NCBI GenBank assembly: GCA_964640215.1
Contig: CAZXEW010000030.1
Span: forward strand, 17,920 to 81,919
From: an uncultured Gammaproteobacteria bacterium
GTDB taxonomy: Bacteria; Patescibacteriota; Microgenomatia; Daviesbacterales; UBA10151
Reading direction: 5' to 3'
DNA: 64,000 bases
The notes beneath the pieces were generated by a model. That model had not been told where the DNA came from and did no database searches. It saw nothing but the letters and a program-made list of their open reading frames with translations. Made by a program: the position numbers and the translations under genes. Below, in pieces: positions 2,574-55,234 of the stretch (position 1 is its first letter; every line of letters begins with the position of its first letter).

Positions 2574-3461
2574 ATGTATCTGTCTGATGAAGAGATTGAG
2601 CAGTTGGAGTTGACGGCTAATACGATCCGCCAGAATATTATTAGGATGCTGGTGGAGGCGGGGTCGGGGCATTCGGCCGGGCCGCTGGGGATGGCTGATG
2701 TCTTTACGGCGATGTTTTTCCATGTTTTGAATATTGATCCATCGAGGGTGGATTGGGAGGAGCGGGATCGGTTTGTACTCTCTTGCGGGCATATTTGTCC
2801 GGTGATGTATGCGACGATGGCCCGTCGCGGTTTTTTCCCGGTTGAGGAGTTGAGAAGTTTGCGAAAATTAGGGACGCGGTTGCAGGGGCATCCACATCGG
2901 GAGTCGTTGCCGGGGCTTGAAACGACTTCGGGGCCGCTTGGCTCAGGGTTGTCACAGGCAAGTGGGATGGCCTTGGTGGCCAAGATGGATCAGCTGATGT
3001 GGCGAGTCTACGTGGTGATGTCGGATGGTGAGCACGATGAGGGTAATACCTGGGAGGCAGTGATGCTGGCGGCTAAGTATAAGTTGCATAATCTGACGGC
3101 GATTTTGGACCGGAATAACATCCAGATTGATGGTTTTACTGAAGATGTGATGCCGCTGGATTCGCTTAAGGCCAAATACGAGGCGTTTGGCTGGTCGGTG
3201 ATCGAGATTGACGGGCATAATATTCGCGAAATAATCGAGGCTTGTGAGAGGGCTAAAACGATTGTCGAGGGTCCGACCCTGATCTTGGCGCACACGATCC
3301 CCGGCAAGGGCGTTGATTTTATGGAAGGCGATTTTCACTGGCACGGCTCGCCGCCGGGGACTCAAGACGTGGCGGGCGATCCACCCAAAGCTGAACAGGC
3401 CCAAATTGCCTTGAAAGAGTTGAGAACGTTAAGGGGGAAGATTAGGAGTGAACATGAATAA
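2574..3461 (+). CDS. tkt: transketolase, N-terminal (TPP-binding) subunit of a split transketolase
   Basis: GSGHSAGPLG TPP-binding motif and a DGEHDEGNTWEA region. ~295 aa matches the split-Tkt N subunit. Confidence 0.85.
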   Translation: MYLSDEEIEQLELTANTIRQNIIRMLVEAGSGHSAGPLGMADVFTAMFFHVLNIDPSRVDWEERDRFVLSCGHICPVMYATMARRGFFPVEELRSLRKLGTRLQGHPHRESLPGLETTSGPLGSGLSQASGMALVAKMDQLMWRVYVVMSDGEHDEGNTWEAVMLAAKYKLHNLTAILDRNNIQIDGFTEDVMPLDSLKAKYEAFGWSVIEIDGHNIREIIEACERAKTIVEGPTLILAHTIPGKGVDFMEGDFHWHGSPPGTQDVAGDPPKAEQAQIALKELRTLRGKIRSEHE

Positions 3462-4805: not shown

Positions 4806-5828
4806 ATGATTAATGACAAAGCTAATTTGAATCCTAAGTTGTTTGAGGAGGGTGTGGAGATGAAGCCTTCGCGGGATGGGTTTGGGGAGGGGTTGGTGTT
4901 GGCGGGGGAAGAAGACAAAAATGTAGTGGCGCTATGTGCGGATTTGACGGAGTCGACGCGGATGGAGGCGTTTAAGCAGAAATTTCCGGAACGATTTATA
5001 GAAGTGGGGGTGGCTGAGCAGAATCTGGTGACAGTTGGATCTGGGATGGCGGCGGCTGGAAAGATACCGTTTGTTAGTTCGTACGCCACATTTTCGCCGG
5101 GGCGGAATTGGGAGCAGATTCGAACAACGATTTGTTACAACAACCAGCCGGTCAAGATTGTCGGTTCTCACGCCGGTATTTCAGTCGGGCCGGATGGGGC
5201 GACGCACCAAGCGTTGGAGGATATGGCCTTGATGCGGGCGTTGCCCAATATGGTGGTGATTTGTCCGGCCGATGCCATTGAGGCGCGTAAAGCCACCCAG
5301 GCGATTGCCCGGACAAAAAAACCGACCTATTTGCGTTTGTCGCGCGATAAAGTGCCGGTAATAACAACCGAACAAACTCCCTTTGAAATAGGTAGGGCGG
5401 AAGTACTCTTTTCATCACTATCGGATACAGGGTTGAACCCTAAAGCCGATAGTGTAGCCATTATTGCCTGTGGACAGATGGTGTACAGGGCGCTGCAAGC
5501 GGCGAAAGAGTTAGGGGAGCAAAAGATTGGGGTCAGGGTGATTAACTGTCATACCATCAAGCCGTTGGATAAAGAGACGATTTTAAAGGCCGCCCAGGAG
5601 TGTGGGGCGATCGTGACAGTTGAGGAGCATCAGGTGAACGGTGGACTCGGTGGAGCGGTGGCGGAATTGGTCTCTCAACATTGCCCGGTGCCGACTAAGA
5701 TTATAGGTATTGACGATCATTTTGGCGAATCAGGGAATCCTCAGGAATTGCTAAAAAAGTTCGGCTTAACCAAGGAGGCGATTGTTAAGGGCGTTTTGCA
5801 GGTCCTGAGGATGAAACCTAATAATTAA
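4806..5828 (+). CDS. tkt: transketolase, C-terminal (pyrimidine-binding plus C-terminal domain) subunit
   Basis: GFGEGLVLAGEEDKNVVALCADL, FIEVGVAEQNLV and GSHAGISVGPDGATHQALEDMALMRALPNM are typical of the Tkt C-terminal half. Confidence 0.85.
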   Translation: MINDKANLNPKLFEEGVEMKPSRDGFGEGLVLAGEEDKNVVALCADLTESTRMEAFKQKFPERFIEVGVAEQNLVTVGSGMAAAGKIPFVSSYATFSPGRNWEQIRTTICYNNQPVKIVGSHAGISVGPDGATHQALEDMALMRALPNMVVICPADAIEARKATQAIARTKKPTYLRLSRDKVPVITTEQTPFEIGRAEVLFSSLSDTGLNPKADSVAIIACGQMVYRALQAAKELGEQKIGVRVINCHTIKPLDKETILKAAQECGAIVTVEEHQVNGGLGGAVAELVSQHCPVPTKIIGIDDHFGESGNPQELLKKFGLTKEAIVKGVLQVLRMKPNN

Positions 5829-7786: not shown

Positions 7787-8764
7787 ATGTTTGATTTGAT
7801 TTCGGTTGGCGACTCGGTAATAGATTTATTTGTACCGCTGATTGATGCGGAAACCCGGAGTGAGGATGGGCAGCGAAAATTGATACTAAGGAGTGGGGAT
7901 AAAGTGCCGGTTGGGCCATCGACGTCACTAATTGGGGGAAATGCGGCCAATAACGCTGTTGGATCGACACGGCTGAAGTTGAATAGCGCCATTTACACTA
8001 ATGTTGGGGATGATGAGGATGGGCAGCGGATTGCCGATAATTTCCGGAGCGAGGGGGTTGACTGCCGGTATTTGGTCAAAAATAAAGAGATGTTGTCGAA
8101 TCACCATGTCGTGCTTGATTTTAAGGGTGAGCGGACGATTTTGGTTCACCATCAGCCCTGGAAGTTAGAGTTGCCGGAATTAGAGCGGACAAAATGGGTC
8201 TATTTGACCTCGCTGTCGCCCTCGTTTGTGGATACTAATTTTATCGAACAGCTGATCAACTATCTCGAACGGACGCGCTCGAAGCTATTGTATAATCCGG
8301 GGACTTTCCAGATTAAGCAGGGGGTTAAGAAAAATCCGCGATTGTTGTCTTTGACAGAGGTTTTTATTGTTAATAAGGAAGAAGCCAAACTGGTGTTGGG
8401 TTTTGAAGAGGGTGAGAAAAAAGAGATGAAAGAGCTGCTGACAGGATTGCATGATCTGGGGCCGCGGCAGGTAGTTGTAACAGACGGTGAGAACGGCTCG
8501 TGGGGGTTTGACGGGGAAAATTTTTTTGAACTAGGTTTGTTTCCAGCTAATTTAGTCGAGATGACCGGGGCCGGTGATGCATATGCCACCGGGGTGTTGG
8601 CTGGATTATTACACGGGAAGAGTTTAGACTCTGCCATGCGCTGGGGTGCGGCAAATGCGGCTGGAGTAGTAGAGCAGGTTGGTCCACAGGCGGGGTTGCT
8701 GACTTATGACCAGATGCAAGAGCGATTGAAAGCTAATTCGAAGATTGTAGCCAAAAAGATTTAG
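7787..8764 (+). CDS. PfkB-family carbohydrate kinase (ribokinase-like)
   Basis: GAGDAYATGVLAGL PfkB signature 2 plus an N-terminal GGNAANNAVG region. The ribokinase role is only suggested by context (rpiB, rpe, tkt nearby). Confidence 0.8.
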   Translation: MFDLISVGDSVIDLFVPLIDAETRSEDGQRKLILRSGDKVPVGPSTSLIGGNAANNAVGSTRLKLNSAIYTNVGDDEDGQRIADNFRSEGVDCRYLVKNKEMLSNHHVVLDFKGERTILVHHQPWKLELPELERTKWVYLTSLSPSFVDTNFIEQLINYLERTRSKLLYNPGTFQIKQGVKKNPRLLSLTEVFIVNKEEAKLVLGFEEGEKKEMKELLTGLHDLGPRQVVVTDGENGSWGFDGENFFELGLFPANLVEMTGAGDAYATGVLAGLLHGKSLDSAMRWGAANAAGVVEQVGPQAGLLTYDQMQERLKANSKIVAKKI

Positions 8765-9457
8765 AATTAGGGTCCGTAGAATTAGGGTCCGACCCTTAGG
8801 TTTCAAGGGTCAATTCCCCTAAGGCTTCTTCAGTATTTTCTAGATAGTCTTCAACAAAATTTTCATACGAAAGGCAGTCTCTTAGATAGATATTGTGCGC
8901 AGTTTTGAAAAATGACAAAATAAAATCAGGTTTCACCCAATCAGCTTTAGCTAAAGATAGATAGTAACGATAGCTTGAAAAATCATATGTTTTAGGGTCG
9001 GACCCTGGATAAGGGTTAAGATGGATATAACGTGACAGGTGTAACAGGTAGATATCTTCCAGAATTATTGTTGCTTTATATTTTCCTTGAAATAACGTGC
9101 CTACCCGGTTGTATTTGAGATTGAAGAAAGTTGCATATTTAGTGCAGACGGCACGCATAAGCTTTGTTATCCCATCCTTAGTGATTTGATGTAGCATTAA
9201 ATGGAAATGATTTGGCATTAAGCAAAAGGCAAGTAAATTTACCTCTTGAGCTAGAGATTTAGGGTCCGACCCTAATGTTGGGTCAAGGTAATGTTTCAAA
9301 TAACTTAGGAAGATGGTGTAATCTTGCCTATCAAGAAAGATAATACGTTTTTCTACGCCTCGATTGTAAACATGGTAATAACTATTTTCGGAGAATTGTC
9401 TGATAGTGTTTTTTGCTGGCATTTGTTTTTTTGTTATCGGCTTTAGGGTCCGACCCC
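8765..9457. repeat. cluster of five copies of a 13-nt REP-like palindrome AGGGTC(C/G)GACCCT: 8765-8778 (imperfect), 8784-8796, 8994-9006, 9261-9273, 9445-9457
   Basis: Palindromes read directly. Two copies flank the RAYT gene on each side and two lie inside its CDS, each encoding G-S-D-P. Confidence 0.6.
8796..9422 (-). CDS. REP-associated tyrosine transposase (RAYT; IS200/IS605 TnpA-like HUH Y1 transposase)
   Basis: YHVYNRG N-terminal motif, HFHLML HUH motif, and a catalytic Tyr region QGKYKA. 208 aa. Flanked by REP palindromes. Confidence 0.75.
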   Translation of the reverse strand: MPAKNTIRQFSENSYYHVYNRGVEKRIIFLDRQDYTIFLSYLKHYLDPTLGSDPKSLAQEVNLLAFCLMPNHFHLMLHQITKDGITKLMRAVCTKYATFFNLKYNRVGTLFQGKYKATIILEDIYLLHLSRYIHLNPYPGSDPKTYDFSSYRYYLSLAKADWVKPDFILSFFKTAHNIYLRDCLSYENFVEDYLENTEEALGELTLET

Positions 9458-9525
9458 AGGCAGGAGTGCATGTGCGTAGTTTAGCAGTAATGGTGAGTTT
9501 GTCAAATTGTGATATTATCTACTGG

Positions 9526-10389
9526 ATGAGTGCACGGGAGTGGTTGGAGAAAGCTAAAAGGGAGAAATTTGCGATTGGGGCCTTTAATGTGGCCAATTTG
9601 GAGACGTTTAAGGCGGTGGCGCAGGCGGCGGCGAATAAAAAATCGCCGGTGATAATTGAGAGCTCGCCGGGGGAGACGGAATGGATGGGGGCGGAAAATG
9701 TGGTTGATTTGGCGCGCAATTATTCGTTAGAATGCGGGGTGCCGATTTTGGTCAATTTGGATCATTCGTTGGAGGTCAAAGATTGTTTGAGTGCGATCGA
9801 GGCGGGTTATGATCTGATTCATTTTGATGGCTCGAAGTTGCCAATTGTGGAAAATATCCGTTTAACCAAACAGGTGGCCGAAGCGGCGCATGCTAAGGGT
9901 TTGACGGCCGAGGGGGAGCTTGATCATATCGGTGGATCGTCCGAGGTTCATGCCGGGGCGGCAGCTGATGAAGCCAGCAAAGTACCAATGACTGAACCAG
10001 AAAACGCTAAGAGGTTTGTTGAGGAGACGGGGGTGGATATATTCGCGGCTTTTGTGGGAAATGTCCATGGATTATATACCGGTGGAATGAAAAAATTGGA
10101 TGTGGAGCGGGTTAAGGCGATTGCCGAGGCGACGGGGGTGTTTTTGTCGCTGCACGGATCCTCGGGCATACCCGAGGATCAGGTTAAGGCCGCGATTCAA
10201 AACGGAATCGTCAAGGTAAACCTGAACTCTGAAGTTCGCCAGGCTTTTAAGGATGAGTTAGAAAAAATTCTCCAACAAAATCCGGATGAGTATGCGATGT
10301 ATAAAGCCCTCCCTCCGGTGGTTGATGCAATCCGCCAATTAGTAGAACACAAAATCGACCTTTTCGGATCAGCCGGGAAAGCAGTTTAA
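9526..10389 (+). CDS. fba: class II fructose-bisphosphate aldolase
   Basis: NLDHS, HFDGS, GNVHG and LHGSSG motifs of class II FBP/tagatose-BP aldolases. The start is placed at MSAREWLEKAK; the ORF-track start at 9406 lies over the REP/RAYT region. Confidence 0.85.
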   Translation: MSAREWLEKAKREKFAIGAFNVANLETFKAVAQAAANKKSPVIIESSPGETEWMGAENVVDLARNYSLECGVPILVNLDHSLEVKDCLSAIEAGYDLIHFDGSKLPIVENIRLTKQVAEAAHAKGLTAEGELDHIGGSSEVHAGAAADEASKVPMTEPENAKRFVEETGVDIFAAFVGNVHGLYTGGMKKLDVERVKAIAEATGVFLSLHGSSGIPEDQVKAAIQNGIVKVNLNSEVRQAFKDELEKILQQNPDEYAMYKALPPVVDAIRQLVEHKIDLFGSAGKAV

Positions 10390-37753: not shown

Positions 37754-38332
37754 ATGGCTGAAAAACGGGTGGTGAATAGGGGGTTTAAAAGGAAGTATTT
37801 CGAGTCGGATAAGGGGTTGGTGATTGTTTATACCGGTGAAGGGAAGGGGAAGACCACGGCGGCGCTGGGGTTGGCTTTGCGCTCGGCCGGGTATAAAAAA
37901 CGGGTGTTGATTGTTCAATTTGGCAAGACTTGGTTTACCGGCGAGATCGAGGGGGTTAAAAAATTAGCGCCGTACGTCAAGCTGATCCAAGGGGGGTTGG
38001 GGTTTGTCAAAATTTTTGATGATAATTCAACTACTCTGGAACACGTCGAGATGGCTAATAAGACCTTTGAGCTGGTCTACGATGAGCTGACATCTGGTAA
38101 ATGGGATGTAGTGGTCGCCGACGAGATTGTCGGGGCGATTGCGGCCAAGTTGTTGAAATTTGAACAAGTCGCAAAATTGATTAAAGATAAACCCTACCGG
38201 GTGGATTTGGTCTTGACCGGTCATTACGCCAGCAAAAATTTGCTGGAACTGGCTGATACAGCCACTGAAATGGTCCAAATTAAGCATGTTTATCAAAAAG
38301 GTATCCTGGCCAAGCCGGGGGTGGATTACTAA
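37754..38332 (+). CDS. btuR: cob(I)yrinic acid a,c-diamide / cob(I)alamin adenosyltransferase (BtuR/CobA/CobO family)
   Basis: VIVYTGEGKGKTTAALGLALR P-loop typical of CobA/BtuR. ~190 aa. Confidence 0.8.
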   Translation: MAEKRVVNRGFKRKYFESDKGLVIVYTGEGKGKTTAALGLALRSAGYKKRVLIVQFGKTWFTGEIEGVKKLAPYVKLIQGGLGFVKIFDDNSTTLEHVEMANKTFELVYDELTSGKWDVVVADEIVGAIAAKLLKFEQVAKLIKDKPYRVDLVLTGHYASKNLLELADTATEMVQIKHVYQKGILAKPGVDY

Positions 38333-38346
38333 TACTATCGGTTTTA

Positions 38347-38359
38347 GGGTTGAACCCTT
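38347..38359. repeat. REP-like 13-nt palindrome AGGGTTGAACCCT downstream of btuR (possible terminator hairpin)
   Basis: Same 6-1-6 architecture as the RAYT-associated AGGGTCCGACCCT. Confidence 0.35.
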
Positions 38360-53638: not shown

Positions 53639-53820
53639 GTGTGCGAGCCAGCCGCGTTCGACGCGGCGGCTTATTAAGATGTCAAGGTTGCTACGTCTGC
53701 GAGTATTTCACTAACTATCTAGATCGTTGTCAGATAGTGCTCCATACTCTAATGACGTAGCTGCTCGCGTGCGAGCCAGCCGCGTTTGTGAAAACCACGT
53801 TTGACGTGGACGCGGCGGCG
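53639..53820. repeat. two direct copies of a GC-rich hairpin repeat (TCG(T/C)GTGCGAGCCAGCCGCGTT...ACGCGGCGGC) at 53639-53670 and 53765-53820, with an A/T-rich inverted repeat (CTATCTAGATCG...AGATAG) between them; 5' flank of tRNA-Glu
   Basis: Read directly. A third, reverse-orientation copy lies inside secA at 62272-62318. Confidence 0.55.
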
Positions 53821-53902
53821 TATCAGATTTTTTAAATCCTCATGCCTGTGGATTATACCAAATTGTCATCTCCTATCCAATTTAATCGGGTACAATGTAG
53901 GT

Positions 53903-55234
53903 ATGGGACGAATATTTGCGGGGTTTTGGTGGATGGGATTGTTTGGTTTGGCGGTCTGTTTTGGATTAATTTTTGGGATAAACGATATTTTAAAGCATGT
54001 CCCGCTTTTTCTAGTTTGGTTTGGATTGGCTTTTGTCTGTTGGGGAATGTTGATAATTGGTGTTTTGTATAGGCCGAAACCTGACTTAAAAATTCCCCTG
54101 CTAATAGTTAGTATAATAATAGTTTTGCTTTGGTTGATGCCAACGACTCTGTCGACTGATGTTTATACCTACCTGTGGGACGGGGAAACTCTGGTATCGG
54201 GGTTCAACCCCTATTTGCATAAACCTTCGGATGCGGTATTTGATGTCCGGCACTCGTCTGATTTGTATCAAAAGATATATTGGAAAGGTGAGTACACGGT
54301 TTATCCGCCGCTGGCTGAATTGGTATTTTCGATCGGGCATTATTTTTATCAATGGTTTGGGTTGGTGGGTGCCAAGATTTGGTTGAGTTTGCCAACGATC
54401 GTGTTAGCCGGGTTGTTATTTAAAGTGTTGGATCGTCGGTATTGGCTGGTTTTTGTGACCAATCCGTTACTTTTGTTTGAGTCGTTTAACGGCGGACATA
54501 TTGATGTTTGGATGATGTTGTTTGGTTGGTTGGCATATTGGTCTTACCTGCGAAAACACTACTACATATCGGCCGGCTGGTTGGGGTTGGCAACAGCGGT
54601 CAAAATAATTCCGATTGTATTTTTGCCGATTATTGCGATTGATTTAGTCAAGTCGAAAAGATGGAGGGACGGGGTCGTGTATAGTCTGTTAGTAGGTTTG
54701 ATACTGTTGGTATTTTACCTGCCGTTTATCAGTGTGTCGCTGTTTCCGGTTTTTCGTTACGTGACCTATTCAGATGTCAATGAATTTAATGCCAGTGTTT
54801 ATCGATACCTGCATTTTTTGGGTGGAATTTGGTCGGTGTTAACTCATCAAAATATTAAAATAATCTTGGCGGTCGGATTAATTTTGGGGGTAGTGGTGGT
54901 AGCAATGCGTAAGTTTTCGGTTAATAGTTTGGTTTTGGCAGGAATTATTTTTCTAATTCTGAATTCGGTAGTTTATCCTTGGTACCTGTTGTTTTTGTTG
55001 CCATTGATATTTTGGACAATTGAAAAATCGAGAGCGAATTATTGGTTTATCGAACTTTGGGTGGTGGAACTATTTTTGGCAATGACTTATTTCGACCAGA
55101 TTTCAACTAGCTTAATTTCTTATGAGCAAAAAAAGGAGATAGTTTATAAATTATCGATGATTGGTTATGGGGTGATTTTGCTGGTCGCTTGTGGACTGGT
55201 TTGGTATAACAGAAAAAATATGAGGTTGAAGTAG
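53903..55234 (+). CDS. polytopic integral membrane protein, possibly a GT-C/DUF2029-type glycosyltransferase
   Basis: ~12 TM helices. The start is placed at MGRIFAGFWWMGL (53903), not the ORF-track 53801. Confidence 0.45.
   Translation: MGRIFAGFWWMGLFGLAVCFGLIFGINDILKHVPLFLVWFGLAFVCWGMLIIGVLYRPKPDLKIPLLIVSIIIVLLWLMPTTLSTDVYTYLWDGETLVSGFNPYLHKPSDAVFDVRHSSDLYQKIYWKGEYTVYPPLAELVFSIGHYFYQWFGLVGAKIWLSLPTIVLAGLLFKVLDRRYWLVFVTNPLLLFESFNGGHIDVWMMLFGWLAYWSYLRKHYYISAGWLGLATAVKIIPIVFLPIIAIDLVKSKRWRDGVVYSLLVGLILLVFYLPFISVSLFPVFRYVTYSDVNEFNASVYRYLHFLGGIWSVLTHQNIKIILAVGLILGVVVVAMRKFSVNSLVLAGIIFLILNSVVYPWYLLFLLPLIFWTIEKSRANYWFIELWVVELFLAMTYFDQISTSLISYEQKKEIVYKLSMIGYGVILLVACGLVWYNRKNMRLK

Follow-up and report, generated by a model that had tools for sequence, protein, structure and literature searches.

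A RAYT-like gene of a Daviesbacteria-like bacterium with a probable cognate palindrome at both flanks and in frame at two loops

Introduction

What holds a palindrome in place inside the reading frame of the enzyme that is expected to recognise it? The question is raised by a 64,000-nucleotide stretch of contig CAZXEW010000030.1 (assembly GCA_964640215.1), referred to below as the window, in which a short gene for a RAYT (also TnpAREP), a tyrosine transposase that goes with repetitive extragenic palindromes (REPs), has the same palindrome before it, behind it and twice within it. RAYT/REP systems are widespread. A first-pass annotation of this DNA had regarded the in-frame copies as unusual and had offered REP insertion into the transposase gene or autoregulation by mRNA hairpins as explanations. 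From the analysis reported here we conclude that the gene is a domesticated, transposase-like, single-copy member of the RAYT/TnpAREP class with cognate palindromes at both ends and in two loops, and that the locus is probably a REPtron of an ultra-small, Daviesbacteria-like bacterium of the Candidate Phyla Radiation (CPR), the palindromes being recognised by its own RAYT and the internal copies being held by a process that acts at the level of the nucleic acid.

Results

Palindrome copies at the RAYT locus

The exact 13-mer AGGGTCSGACCCT occurs four times in the window, namely at the 3' end of the gene, at the two internal sites and at one far position (Table 1), against an expected count of 0.00 in dinucleotide-preserving shuffles of the window. 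The copy 5' of the gene, AGGGTCCGACCCC (9445-9457), departs from it by a single mismatch at the last base and keeps a perfectly palindromic 11-nt core. On the coding strand all four copies at the locus read GGGTCSGACCC-TAA. Wider searches of the window gave 8 occurrences of TTAGGGTC with 1.66 expected and 8 of GGGTYSRACCC with 0.10 expected, and the clustering of the copies is far beyond chance. The 5' copy stands 23 nt from the ATG of the RAYT gene, and its arm, TATCGGCTTT, is common to the dispersed copies treated below.

The first-pass annotation had counted five copies within 700 bp. Three are exact and the 5' copy is near-exact, whereas the fifth is only a half copy, AGGGTCCG (8769-8776), which is there because of a perfect 15-nt tandem duplication of TAGAATTAGGGTCCG. 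The duplication runs from the stop codon of the PfkB-like open reading frame (ORF) 7787-8764 to the middle of the 3' palindrome, and it could be either a slippage event or the footprint of cleavage within the hairpin loop. Nor does the 3' copy contain the stop codon of the RAYT gene, as had been stated; it shares a single base with the TAA. Translation of ORF 8796-9422 did bear out that both internal copies keep to the reading frame, giving LGSDPKSL and YPGSDPKTY.

Frozen codons and conserved neighbourhoods in close orthologues

The window gene was compared with six fetched orthologues (L161, L163, L165, L166, L167 and L168), the seven genes being 65-78% identical in pairwise comparison. In each of the seven, GGGTCSGACCC occurs four times: one copy precedes the ATG by 12-34 nt, two occupy the internal sites and the fourth follows the stop codon by 0-17 nt. 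The non-coding DNA around these palindromes is otherwise unrelated. The GSDP segments are encoded by GGG-TCS-GAC-CCT in 14 of 14 cases, where the codon usage of these genes would predict 0.9% per site. A single codon is used by all seven genes at six of the eight GSDP positions, compared with 8 of 86 (9%) other invariant degenerate residues, and the two remaining GSDP codons alternate between TCC and TCG only, which is the free centre of the palindrome. Judged by these codons, the constraint on the GSDP segments acts at the DNA level and not on the protein.

The gene order fba, Y1 transposase, pfkB is shared by the window, L165 and L167, and the orthologues with a shared neighbourhood are 67-71% identical; a PfkB neighbour is also present in L161 and L168. 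L163 and L166 have the gene in another conserved setting, close to ileS. Because neighbourhoods are conserved among the orthologues, this single-copy gene is taken to be vertically inherited and not recently inserted.

The family as a whole is represented by at least 7,900 protein matches. The 120 best of these come from CPR bacteria (Daviesbacteria, Levybacteria and Curtissbacteria); GSDP occupies at least one of the two sites in 101 of them, with differing residues around it, and in some a third GSDP stands right at the N- or C-terminus. In the GSDP-bearing relatives examined, the peptide was never found without the palindrome, which is present at the flanks in 7 of 7, in agreement with the first-pass view that the segments belong to the repeat. 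More distant relatives have other loop peptides, which match the palindromes of each.

Co-variation of internal and flanking palindromes among distant homologues

Two collection scans yielded 160 loci of 32-67% identity, nearly all from metagenome-assembled genomes (MAGs) of CPR bacteria, and 130 unique loci were analysed. GGGTCSGACCC was found in only a few of the 160; in most, a different palindrome, particular to the locus, occupies the equivalent places (for example AGGTCNGACCT, GAAGTCNGACTTC, AAGGACCATCCTT, GAGGATTATCCTC, AACCCCAGGGGTT and GAGGCAAGGCCTC); the repeats of these distant relatives are usually stem-loops of 21-33 nt with stems of 9-15 bp, some of them bulged. A repeated palindrome flanks the gene in 95 of the 130 unique loci, with 36 distinct cores. 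The core found at the flanks of a locus is also present inside its own coding sequence in 65 of the 95 (68%), versus 2% for the cores of other loci.

The internal copies are confined to two places, 17-36 aa before the HUH motif and 8-19 aa past the catalytic Tyr, and matches that lie farther downstream represent the 3' copy, taken up by a longer reading frame. The distance from HUH to Tyr is nearly always 61 aa (62 in three loci). When queries of 15-17 nt were searched with up to two mismatches in 87 loci, 49 had a near-exact copy at site 1 and 26 had one at site 2, compared with 0 of 87 in two control segments, the HUH-Y segment included. The distribution of mismatches is bimodal, a copy being either near-perfect or absent, and copies are therefore maintained or removed and not left decaying. 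Internal stems are as long as the flanking ones (median 10 bp and 8-9 bp, respectively).

On a neighbour-joining tree of conserved columns with 130 tips, the presence of the site-1 copy has phylogenetic signal, needing 25 parsimony changes compared with 41 in shuffles, and over the 53 tips at which that copy is retained the core of the palindrome underwent 24 changes or more. Two paralogues in a single MAG (L018 and L023) bear different palindromes. The peptides that the loops encode differ wholly between lineages (GSDP, LQGSSLK, EVGLRK, QVRP and KDGPRRL). In terms of sequence, the protein tolerates almost any peptide at the two loops and the nucleic acid is what is conserved, a pattern of concerted evolution at the nucleic-acid level across the family.

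Whether the GSDP segments are insertions, a check that the first-pass annotation had proposed, received a mixed answer: loops that hold an internal palindrome are hardly longer than those that lack one (71 versus 69 aa and 23 versus 21 aa), which fits a simple insertion origin and its absence alike, and only the shortest site-2 loops (13 aa, of the YIHLNP-DDY..WPYSSY type) always lack the copy. A one-off REP insertion into tnpA, as that annotation had supposed, does not fit the copies at orthologous positions in all seven close relatives, the frozen synonymous sites and the use of the same two loops family-wide.

Some of the loci show further peculiarities. In L035, L089 and L090, two adjacent palindromes 17-18 nt apart lie in frame at one site, mirroring doublets at the flanks. 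In L081 (~640-1500) the final ~70 nt of a host membrane-protein gene are found twice, as diverged copies on the two sides of the RAYT cassette, and the end repeats of the cassette form a true inverted pair, GGGTCCGTCCC and GGGACGGACCC, rather than palindromes; this arrangement hints that the cassette may move or be captured. L160 (955-1595) holds a RAYT pseudogene with stops and frameshifts, around which the flanking palindromes, AGCAGGGTTGCACCCTTTA, are still intact. L069 apparently has two tandem copies of the whole cassette, three palindrome contexts recurring ~925 nt downstream.

The gene and its predicted protein

The 208-aa product matched the Pfam family PF01797 (Y1_Tnp) with 34.2 bits (cut-off 23). 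Besides the HUH motif and the putative catalytic tyrosine (Table 1), it has an FQ motif (LFQGKY) and an SS tail (DFSSY); across 50 homologues there is no variation at N71, H74, Y132, H134, N136, P137, S149 or S150, and next to none at H72. According to Table 1 of PMC6006769, Y-x3-NP marks class 2 and Y-x3-Q class 1. The AlphaFold model (AF2; pLDDT 85) has the order beta1, helix A, loop 47-60, beta2, beta3 (HUH), helix, beta4, Tyr helix 123-135, loop 136-149 and C-terminal helices, and both GSDP segments are accordingly predicted to lie in surface loops, site 1 between helix A and strand 2 and site 2 straight after the helix with the catalytic Tyr.

A search of the Protein Data Bank (PDB) with the sequence of the 208-aa protein returned nothing meaningful, and only the fold search gave matches: with Foldseek, the model matched 4ER8, 2A6O, 2XO6 and 2F4F at E values of 1e-4 to 1e-3, the matches including the TnpA proteins of IS608 and ISDra2 and, with the best target-normalised TM-score (0.65), 4ER8, the E. 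coli RAYT. The first-pass assignment to the RAYT class of Y1/HUH enzymes is thus supported by the Y1_Tnp domain and by a fold closest to 4ER8 and to IS608/ISDra2 TnpA.

The window contains this one RAYT gene only; the further copies that the first-pass annotation had thought worth looking for are absent from its whole length, and no tnpB-like ORF adjoins the gene, which stands between a class II aldolase gene (fba) and a PfkB gene. The GC content of the RAYT gene is 36.0%, versus 44.6% for the window, and the GC-rich palindromes are conspicuous in this AT-rich gene. A sigma-70-like promoter match lies upstream of it (Table 1) and, if real, would place the 5' palindrome in the 5' untranslated region (UTR); promoter-like sites were no more numerous in the consensus scan than in shuffles. 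The scan found no terminator-like sites, and no Rfam family matched 8600-9650.

Table 1. Palindrome copies, gene features and related repeats in the window
Feature	Position	Strand	Description
RAYT/TnpAREP-like Y1 HUH gene, 208 aa	8796-9422	-	from ORF list; stop codon 8796-8798
HUH motif N71-H72-F73-H74	9201-9212	-	from translation
Putative catalytic Tyr132 of YIHLNP (132-137)	9027-9029	-	class 2 signature Y-x3-NP
5' palindrome copy	9435-9457	-	perfect core GGGTCCGACCC at 9446-9456; arm TATCGGCTTT at 9435-9444
Internal copy, site 1	9259-9275	-	17-nt perfect palindrome TTAGGGTCCGACCCTAA (13-mer at 9261-9273); reads L-G-S-D-P-K
Internal copy, site 2	8994-9006	-	reads (P)-G-S-D-P-(K)
3' palindrome copy	8784-8796	-	one-base overlap with TAA stop (8796-8798)
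15-nt perfect tandem duplication, TAGAATTAGGGTCCG x2	8762-8776 and 8777-8791		direct sequence reading
Sigma-70-like promoter match	9478-9505	-	TTGACA, 16 nt, TAAACT; consensus scan only
Exact 13-mer	3268-3280	+	inside ORF 2574-3461 (transketolase N-terminal subunit); reads E-G-P-T-L in another frame
39-nt composite palindrome, CACTATCGG-ATAC-AGGGTTGAACCCT-AAAG-CCGATAGTG	5416-5454	+	in frame in Transket_pyr ORF 4806-5828
Intergenic variant copy, TATCGG-TTTT-AGGGTTGAACCCT	38336-38358	+	14 nt past stop of ORF 37754-38332
Variant core GGGTTCAACCC	54200-54210	+	in frame in ORF 53801-55234; reads G-F-N-P; preceded by TATCGG

Dispersed copies outside the RAYT gene

In the relatives, the core of a locus occurs outside its own REPtron at 0.63 per 10 kb, versus 0.048 for foreign cores, and the dispersed copies frequently form inverted pairs with a spacing of 15-26 nt, resembling REPINs (L064, L062, L054 and L145). 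The 64 kb of the window hold four related copies outside the RAYT locus, three of them intragenic (Table 1). Compared with the L161 orthologue (EKPTV), the copy at 3268 involves no change in length and substitutions only, and this suggests that it may have arisen by conversion rather than by insertion. We also considered that the 3268 copy might be a chance coding match and dropped this idea, as four orthologous loci each have an extra 13-mer and a second variant family is present in the window; in the three loci besides L161 the extra 13-mer, one in each, is inside an unrelated gene, and all these extra copies together have an expectation of ~0.003 on our estimate from base composition.

The composite palindrome at 5416-5454 reads ..SDTGLNPKADS.., and its core is a compensatory variant in which C:G is replaced by T:A. 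The L161 orthologue of this Transket_pyr ORF (around 14233) has GGGTCCGACCC (G-S-D-P-K) in the same loop, which is 5-6 aa shorter there. The variant GGGTTSAACCC is found in the window at 5430, 38347 and 54200. TATCGG-N4-AGGGT, observed 4 times with 0.14 expected, ties the 5' copy of the RAYT gene to the composite palindrome, the extended repeat unit being TATCGG-N4-AGGGTYSRACCCT. Because GGGTTSAACCC is the cognate palindrome of another RAYT homologue (L100), a second RAYT may be present elsewhere in the source genome, outside the window. By these counts the repeat family is real but sparse, and often intragenic in these compact genomes.

Comparison with known systems

The locus most resembles the REPtron of E. 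coli TnpAREP/RAYT (Nunvar 2010, PMC2817692; Ton-Hoang 2012, PMC3333891; Messing 2012, structure 4ER8; Corneloup 2021, PMC8266576), with which it shares a Y1 HUH enzyme with Y-x3-NP, single copy number, vertical inheritance, a cognate palindrome on both flanks, co-evolution of enzyme and repeat, and paralogue-specific repeats. It differs from the E. coli system in that the repeat is a perfect palindrome of 11-13 nt (17 at site 1) without a GTAG foot, that two copies lie in the enzyme's own ORF, and that dispersal is sparse (~0.6 per 10 kb in relatives) and often intragenic.

In-frame cognate REPs in a peripheral variable region have been described for subclass 2.4 TnpAREP (Bertels group 4) by Quentin, Siguier, Chandler and Fichant (2018; PMC6006769), who read them as tolerated in that region, so that the principle of in-frame REPs inside RAYT genes is not new, although position and subclass are different. 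The copies in the window are to this extent less unusual than the first-pass annotation had held. The REPs of subclass 2.4 are long, with GT[AG]G or a 'double foot', and its members, mainly from Cyanobacteria and Bacteroidetes, have the motifs NH[IFV]H, WQ and YIxNNP (PMC6006769); here, by contrast, there are no copies between HUH and Y, both fixed sites fall outside the core, the protein has NHFH, FQ and YIHLNP, and it is CPR bacteria that act as hosts. The present evidence is at the level of codons and of co-variation, of which the portions of PMC6006769 available to us make no mention for subclass 2.4.

In its motifs the protein is closer to subclass 2.1 TnpAY1 (Bertels group 1, or TIRYTs), which has NH[YF]H, FQ, Y[IV]HLNP, an SS tail and a C-terminal extension (PMC6006769); the subclass 2.1 signature of the 208-aa protein was judged from these motifs, not from the authors' hidden Markov models, and the placement is to be taken as provisional to that degree. 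According to PMC6006769, automatic and manual searches found no REP-like sequences for subclass 2.1, which has at most terminal inverted repeats with GGGGWSAS (see also Di Nocera 2013, PMC3733652), and Bertels et al. (2017; PMC5581495) reported only a weak enrichment of flanking repeats for group 1. The CPR clade departs from this published description, since its cognate palindromes both flank and invade the gene.

IS200, with its class 1 TnpA (IS200/IS605), is similar in being a unit of ~0.7 kb with a Y1 gene between hairpins, one of them beside the translation start. It is set apart by the class 1 signature Y-x3-Q, by multiple identical copies and by mobility, and we know of no description of its end-hairpins lying in frame within tnpA. 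Intragenic REPs and the Rickettsia palindromic elements (RPE; PMC3733652) likewise place palindromes in frame in permissive loops of coding genes, and the copies in both transketolase subunit genes and in a third ORF of the window are parallels to them. Those insertions are of 20-80 aa across unrelated genes (PMC3733652 and references therein), whereas the repeats described here add 0-6 aa and the gene that is most heavily and consistently loaded encodes the cognate enzyme. Full-text searches found no literature that links RAYTs or REPs with CPR bacteria/Patescibacteria or reports the present arrangement.

Discussion

The internal copies are, on the sequence evidence given above, neither protein motifs nor a recent accident, and the reading that we consider probable is that of a REPtron with copies kept in place at the nucleic-acid level. 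By analogy with 4ER8/E. coli TnpAREP and IS608 (PMC8266576), the enzyme would bind its palindromes as hairpins of single-stranded DNA and cut and rejoin alongside them. If it acts beside the palindromes, the internal copies would make the gene a target of its own product, and it is in this role, as sites for that product, that we infer them to serve. All copies could be kept identical by selection for recognition by the cognate enzyme, by short-patch conversion or template switching, or by both; when the palindrome of a lineage changes, all copies in the locus change together, and template switching between self-complementary copies would also account for the free flipping of the loop. The likeliest consequences of the internal copies would be feedback in cis that limits expression and a lasting, obligatory physical tie between the repeat and its enzyme.

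Several observations weigh against this reading or narrow what may be claimed for it. The data fit selection and continual conversion alike. The 208-aa protein reached only 32.2 bits with the NCBIfam equivalog NF047646 (REP_Tyr_transpos; cut-off 80), by which score it would be a distant member at best. As single-stranded DNA the copies of the window fold weakly (-2.5 to -5.2 kcal/mol), the 17-nt copy at site 1 (-5.2 kcal/mol, z = -4.5) being the only one that clearly beats shuffles. The GT[AG]G foot is absent in the window, where the feet are TTAG, ATAG or CCAG; several relatives do have G[TC]A[GA] at the foot of the stem (e.g. cgtagg and gcagg). Recognition as a hairpin is therefore less obvious in the clade of the window, with its 11-13 nt (17 at site 1), than in relatives with stems of 9-15 bp. 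No orientation rule emerged for the upstream, site-1, site-2 and downstream copies, all combinations of same and flipped being found, and the upstream and downstream copies are in the same orientation in 29 loci and flipped in 29. In about one third of the loci with flanking copies (27 of 95), internal ones are missing. Patchy internal copies and free orientation would argue against a strictly required, position-specific function.

It is in these last points that the main rival has its strength, namely that the internal REPs are selfish passengers of no use to enzyme or host, tolerated in the sole two loops of the closest gene at hand that admit a palindrome in frame, homogenised like any REP family and shielded from deletion by the ORF. 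The patchiness just mentioned, with 25 changes at site 1 over the tree, speaks for it, as do variable orientation and copy number (including the doublets within coding sequence), the presence of the same repeats in frame in unrelated housekeeping genes, and the similar interpretation of subclass 2.4 by Quentin et al. (PMC6006769). Frozen synonymous sites at 65-78% identity and a bimodal distribution, however, need an active maintaining force, and it is hard to see how independent insertions would keep to one pair of loops while the palindrome changed at least 24 times. Since it coincides with our preferred explanation except on function, we regard this rival as possible, if distinctly the less probable of the two. 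Regulation at the RNA level, in which mRNA hairpins or long-range 13-bp duplexes would control translation initiation and mRNA stability as in IS200, draws on the 5' copy 12-34 nt from the ATG in the orthologues, on the promoter-like site that would set this copy in the 5' UTR, and on four copies on one transcript, of which C-centred and G-centred ones are perfectly complementary. It is made unlikely by the free flipping of loop orientation, by repeats elsewhere on either strand and in intergenic pairs, by the lack of an Rfam match and by the weak hairpins of the window clade, and further by mismatches on the coding strand, where G-T is not in excess over A-C, as an RNA-strand signature would have it (internal copies 6 versus 5, upstream 5 versus 9, downstream 3 versus 6; small counts).

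More improbable still is that the palindromes are symmetric operator sites in duplex DNA for a dimeric protein, whether the RAYT or a host regulator, and not hairpins at all. The cores are short, perfect, odd-centred, free at the central base and strand-symmetric, and form weak hairpins in this clade, all of which such a role would explain; on the other hand, the repeats of the relatives are bulged stem-loops of 21-33 nt in REPIN-like inverted pairs, the variants within the window differ by the compensatory C:G to T:A change that pairing predicts, and the solved Y1 enzymes bind hairpins of single-stranded DNA (4ER8, 2A6O). That the flanking palindromes are the end hairpins of an autonomous IS200-type mobile unit of ~700 bp, the internal ones being incidental, is very doubtful: size and layout are similar, and the ~70-nt duplicated host 3' end in L081 and the apparent tandem cassettes in L069 could be cited for it, but the enzyme has the class 2 Y-x3-NP in place of the class 1 Y-x3-Q, is encoded once in the window without tnpB, and has orthologues that keep their chromosomal position, and the internal copies would be left unexplained. 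Hardly any credence is due to the view that GSDP is conserved for protein function with the palindrome as a by-product, or that a recent one-off REP insertion took place. The frequency of GSDP, which 101 of the 120 best protein matches have at one site or both, would fit a protein motif, yet the palindromic codons are used in 14 of 14 cases and the loops of relatives encode unrelated peptides that match their own flanks, while the one-off insertion is contradicted by the orthologous conservation of the internal copies. Protein motif, one-off insertion and autonomous element were rejected as contradicted by the codon, co-variation and single-copy data.

A stronger version of the REPtron reading holds that the in-frame copies are a selected part of the RAYT-REP partnership, serving as undeletable, co-segregating master copies that regenerate or homogenise the others and make the enzyme self-limiting. 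We think this improbable on present data; if true, it would amount to a built-in linkage device that would explain the co-evolution of RAYT and REP specificity across thousands of CPR lineages. More speculatively, the loop peptide that the palindrome encodes could take part in recognising the palindrome.

The finding is more general than the first-pass annotation had supposed and is mainly of interest to those who study mobile elements and HUH enzymes. A conserved peptide of the GSDP kind in RAYT-like proteins should not be taken for a protein motif, and the 36 pairs of palindrome and enzyme among the 130 loci form a natural co-variation set from which rules of recognition may be sought. For the biology of the CPR/Patescibacteria, it means that a very large RAYT-like family (at least 7,900 matches) has cognate palindromes despite belonging to a motif class described as lacking REPs, that the repeat sits in the enzyme's own frame at two fixed loops, where it evolves along with the flanks through dozens of sequence changes, and that in these compact genomes the same repeats are also carried in frame by housekeeping genes.

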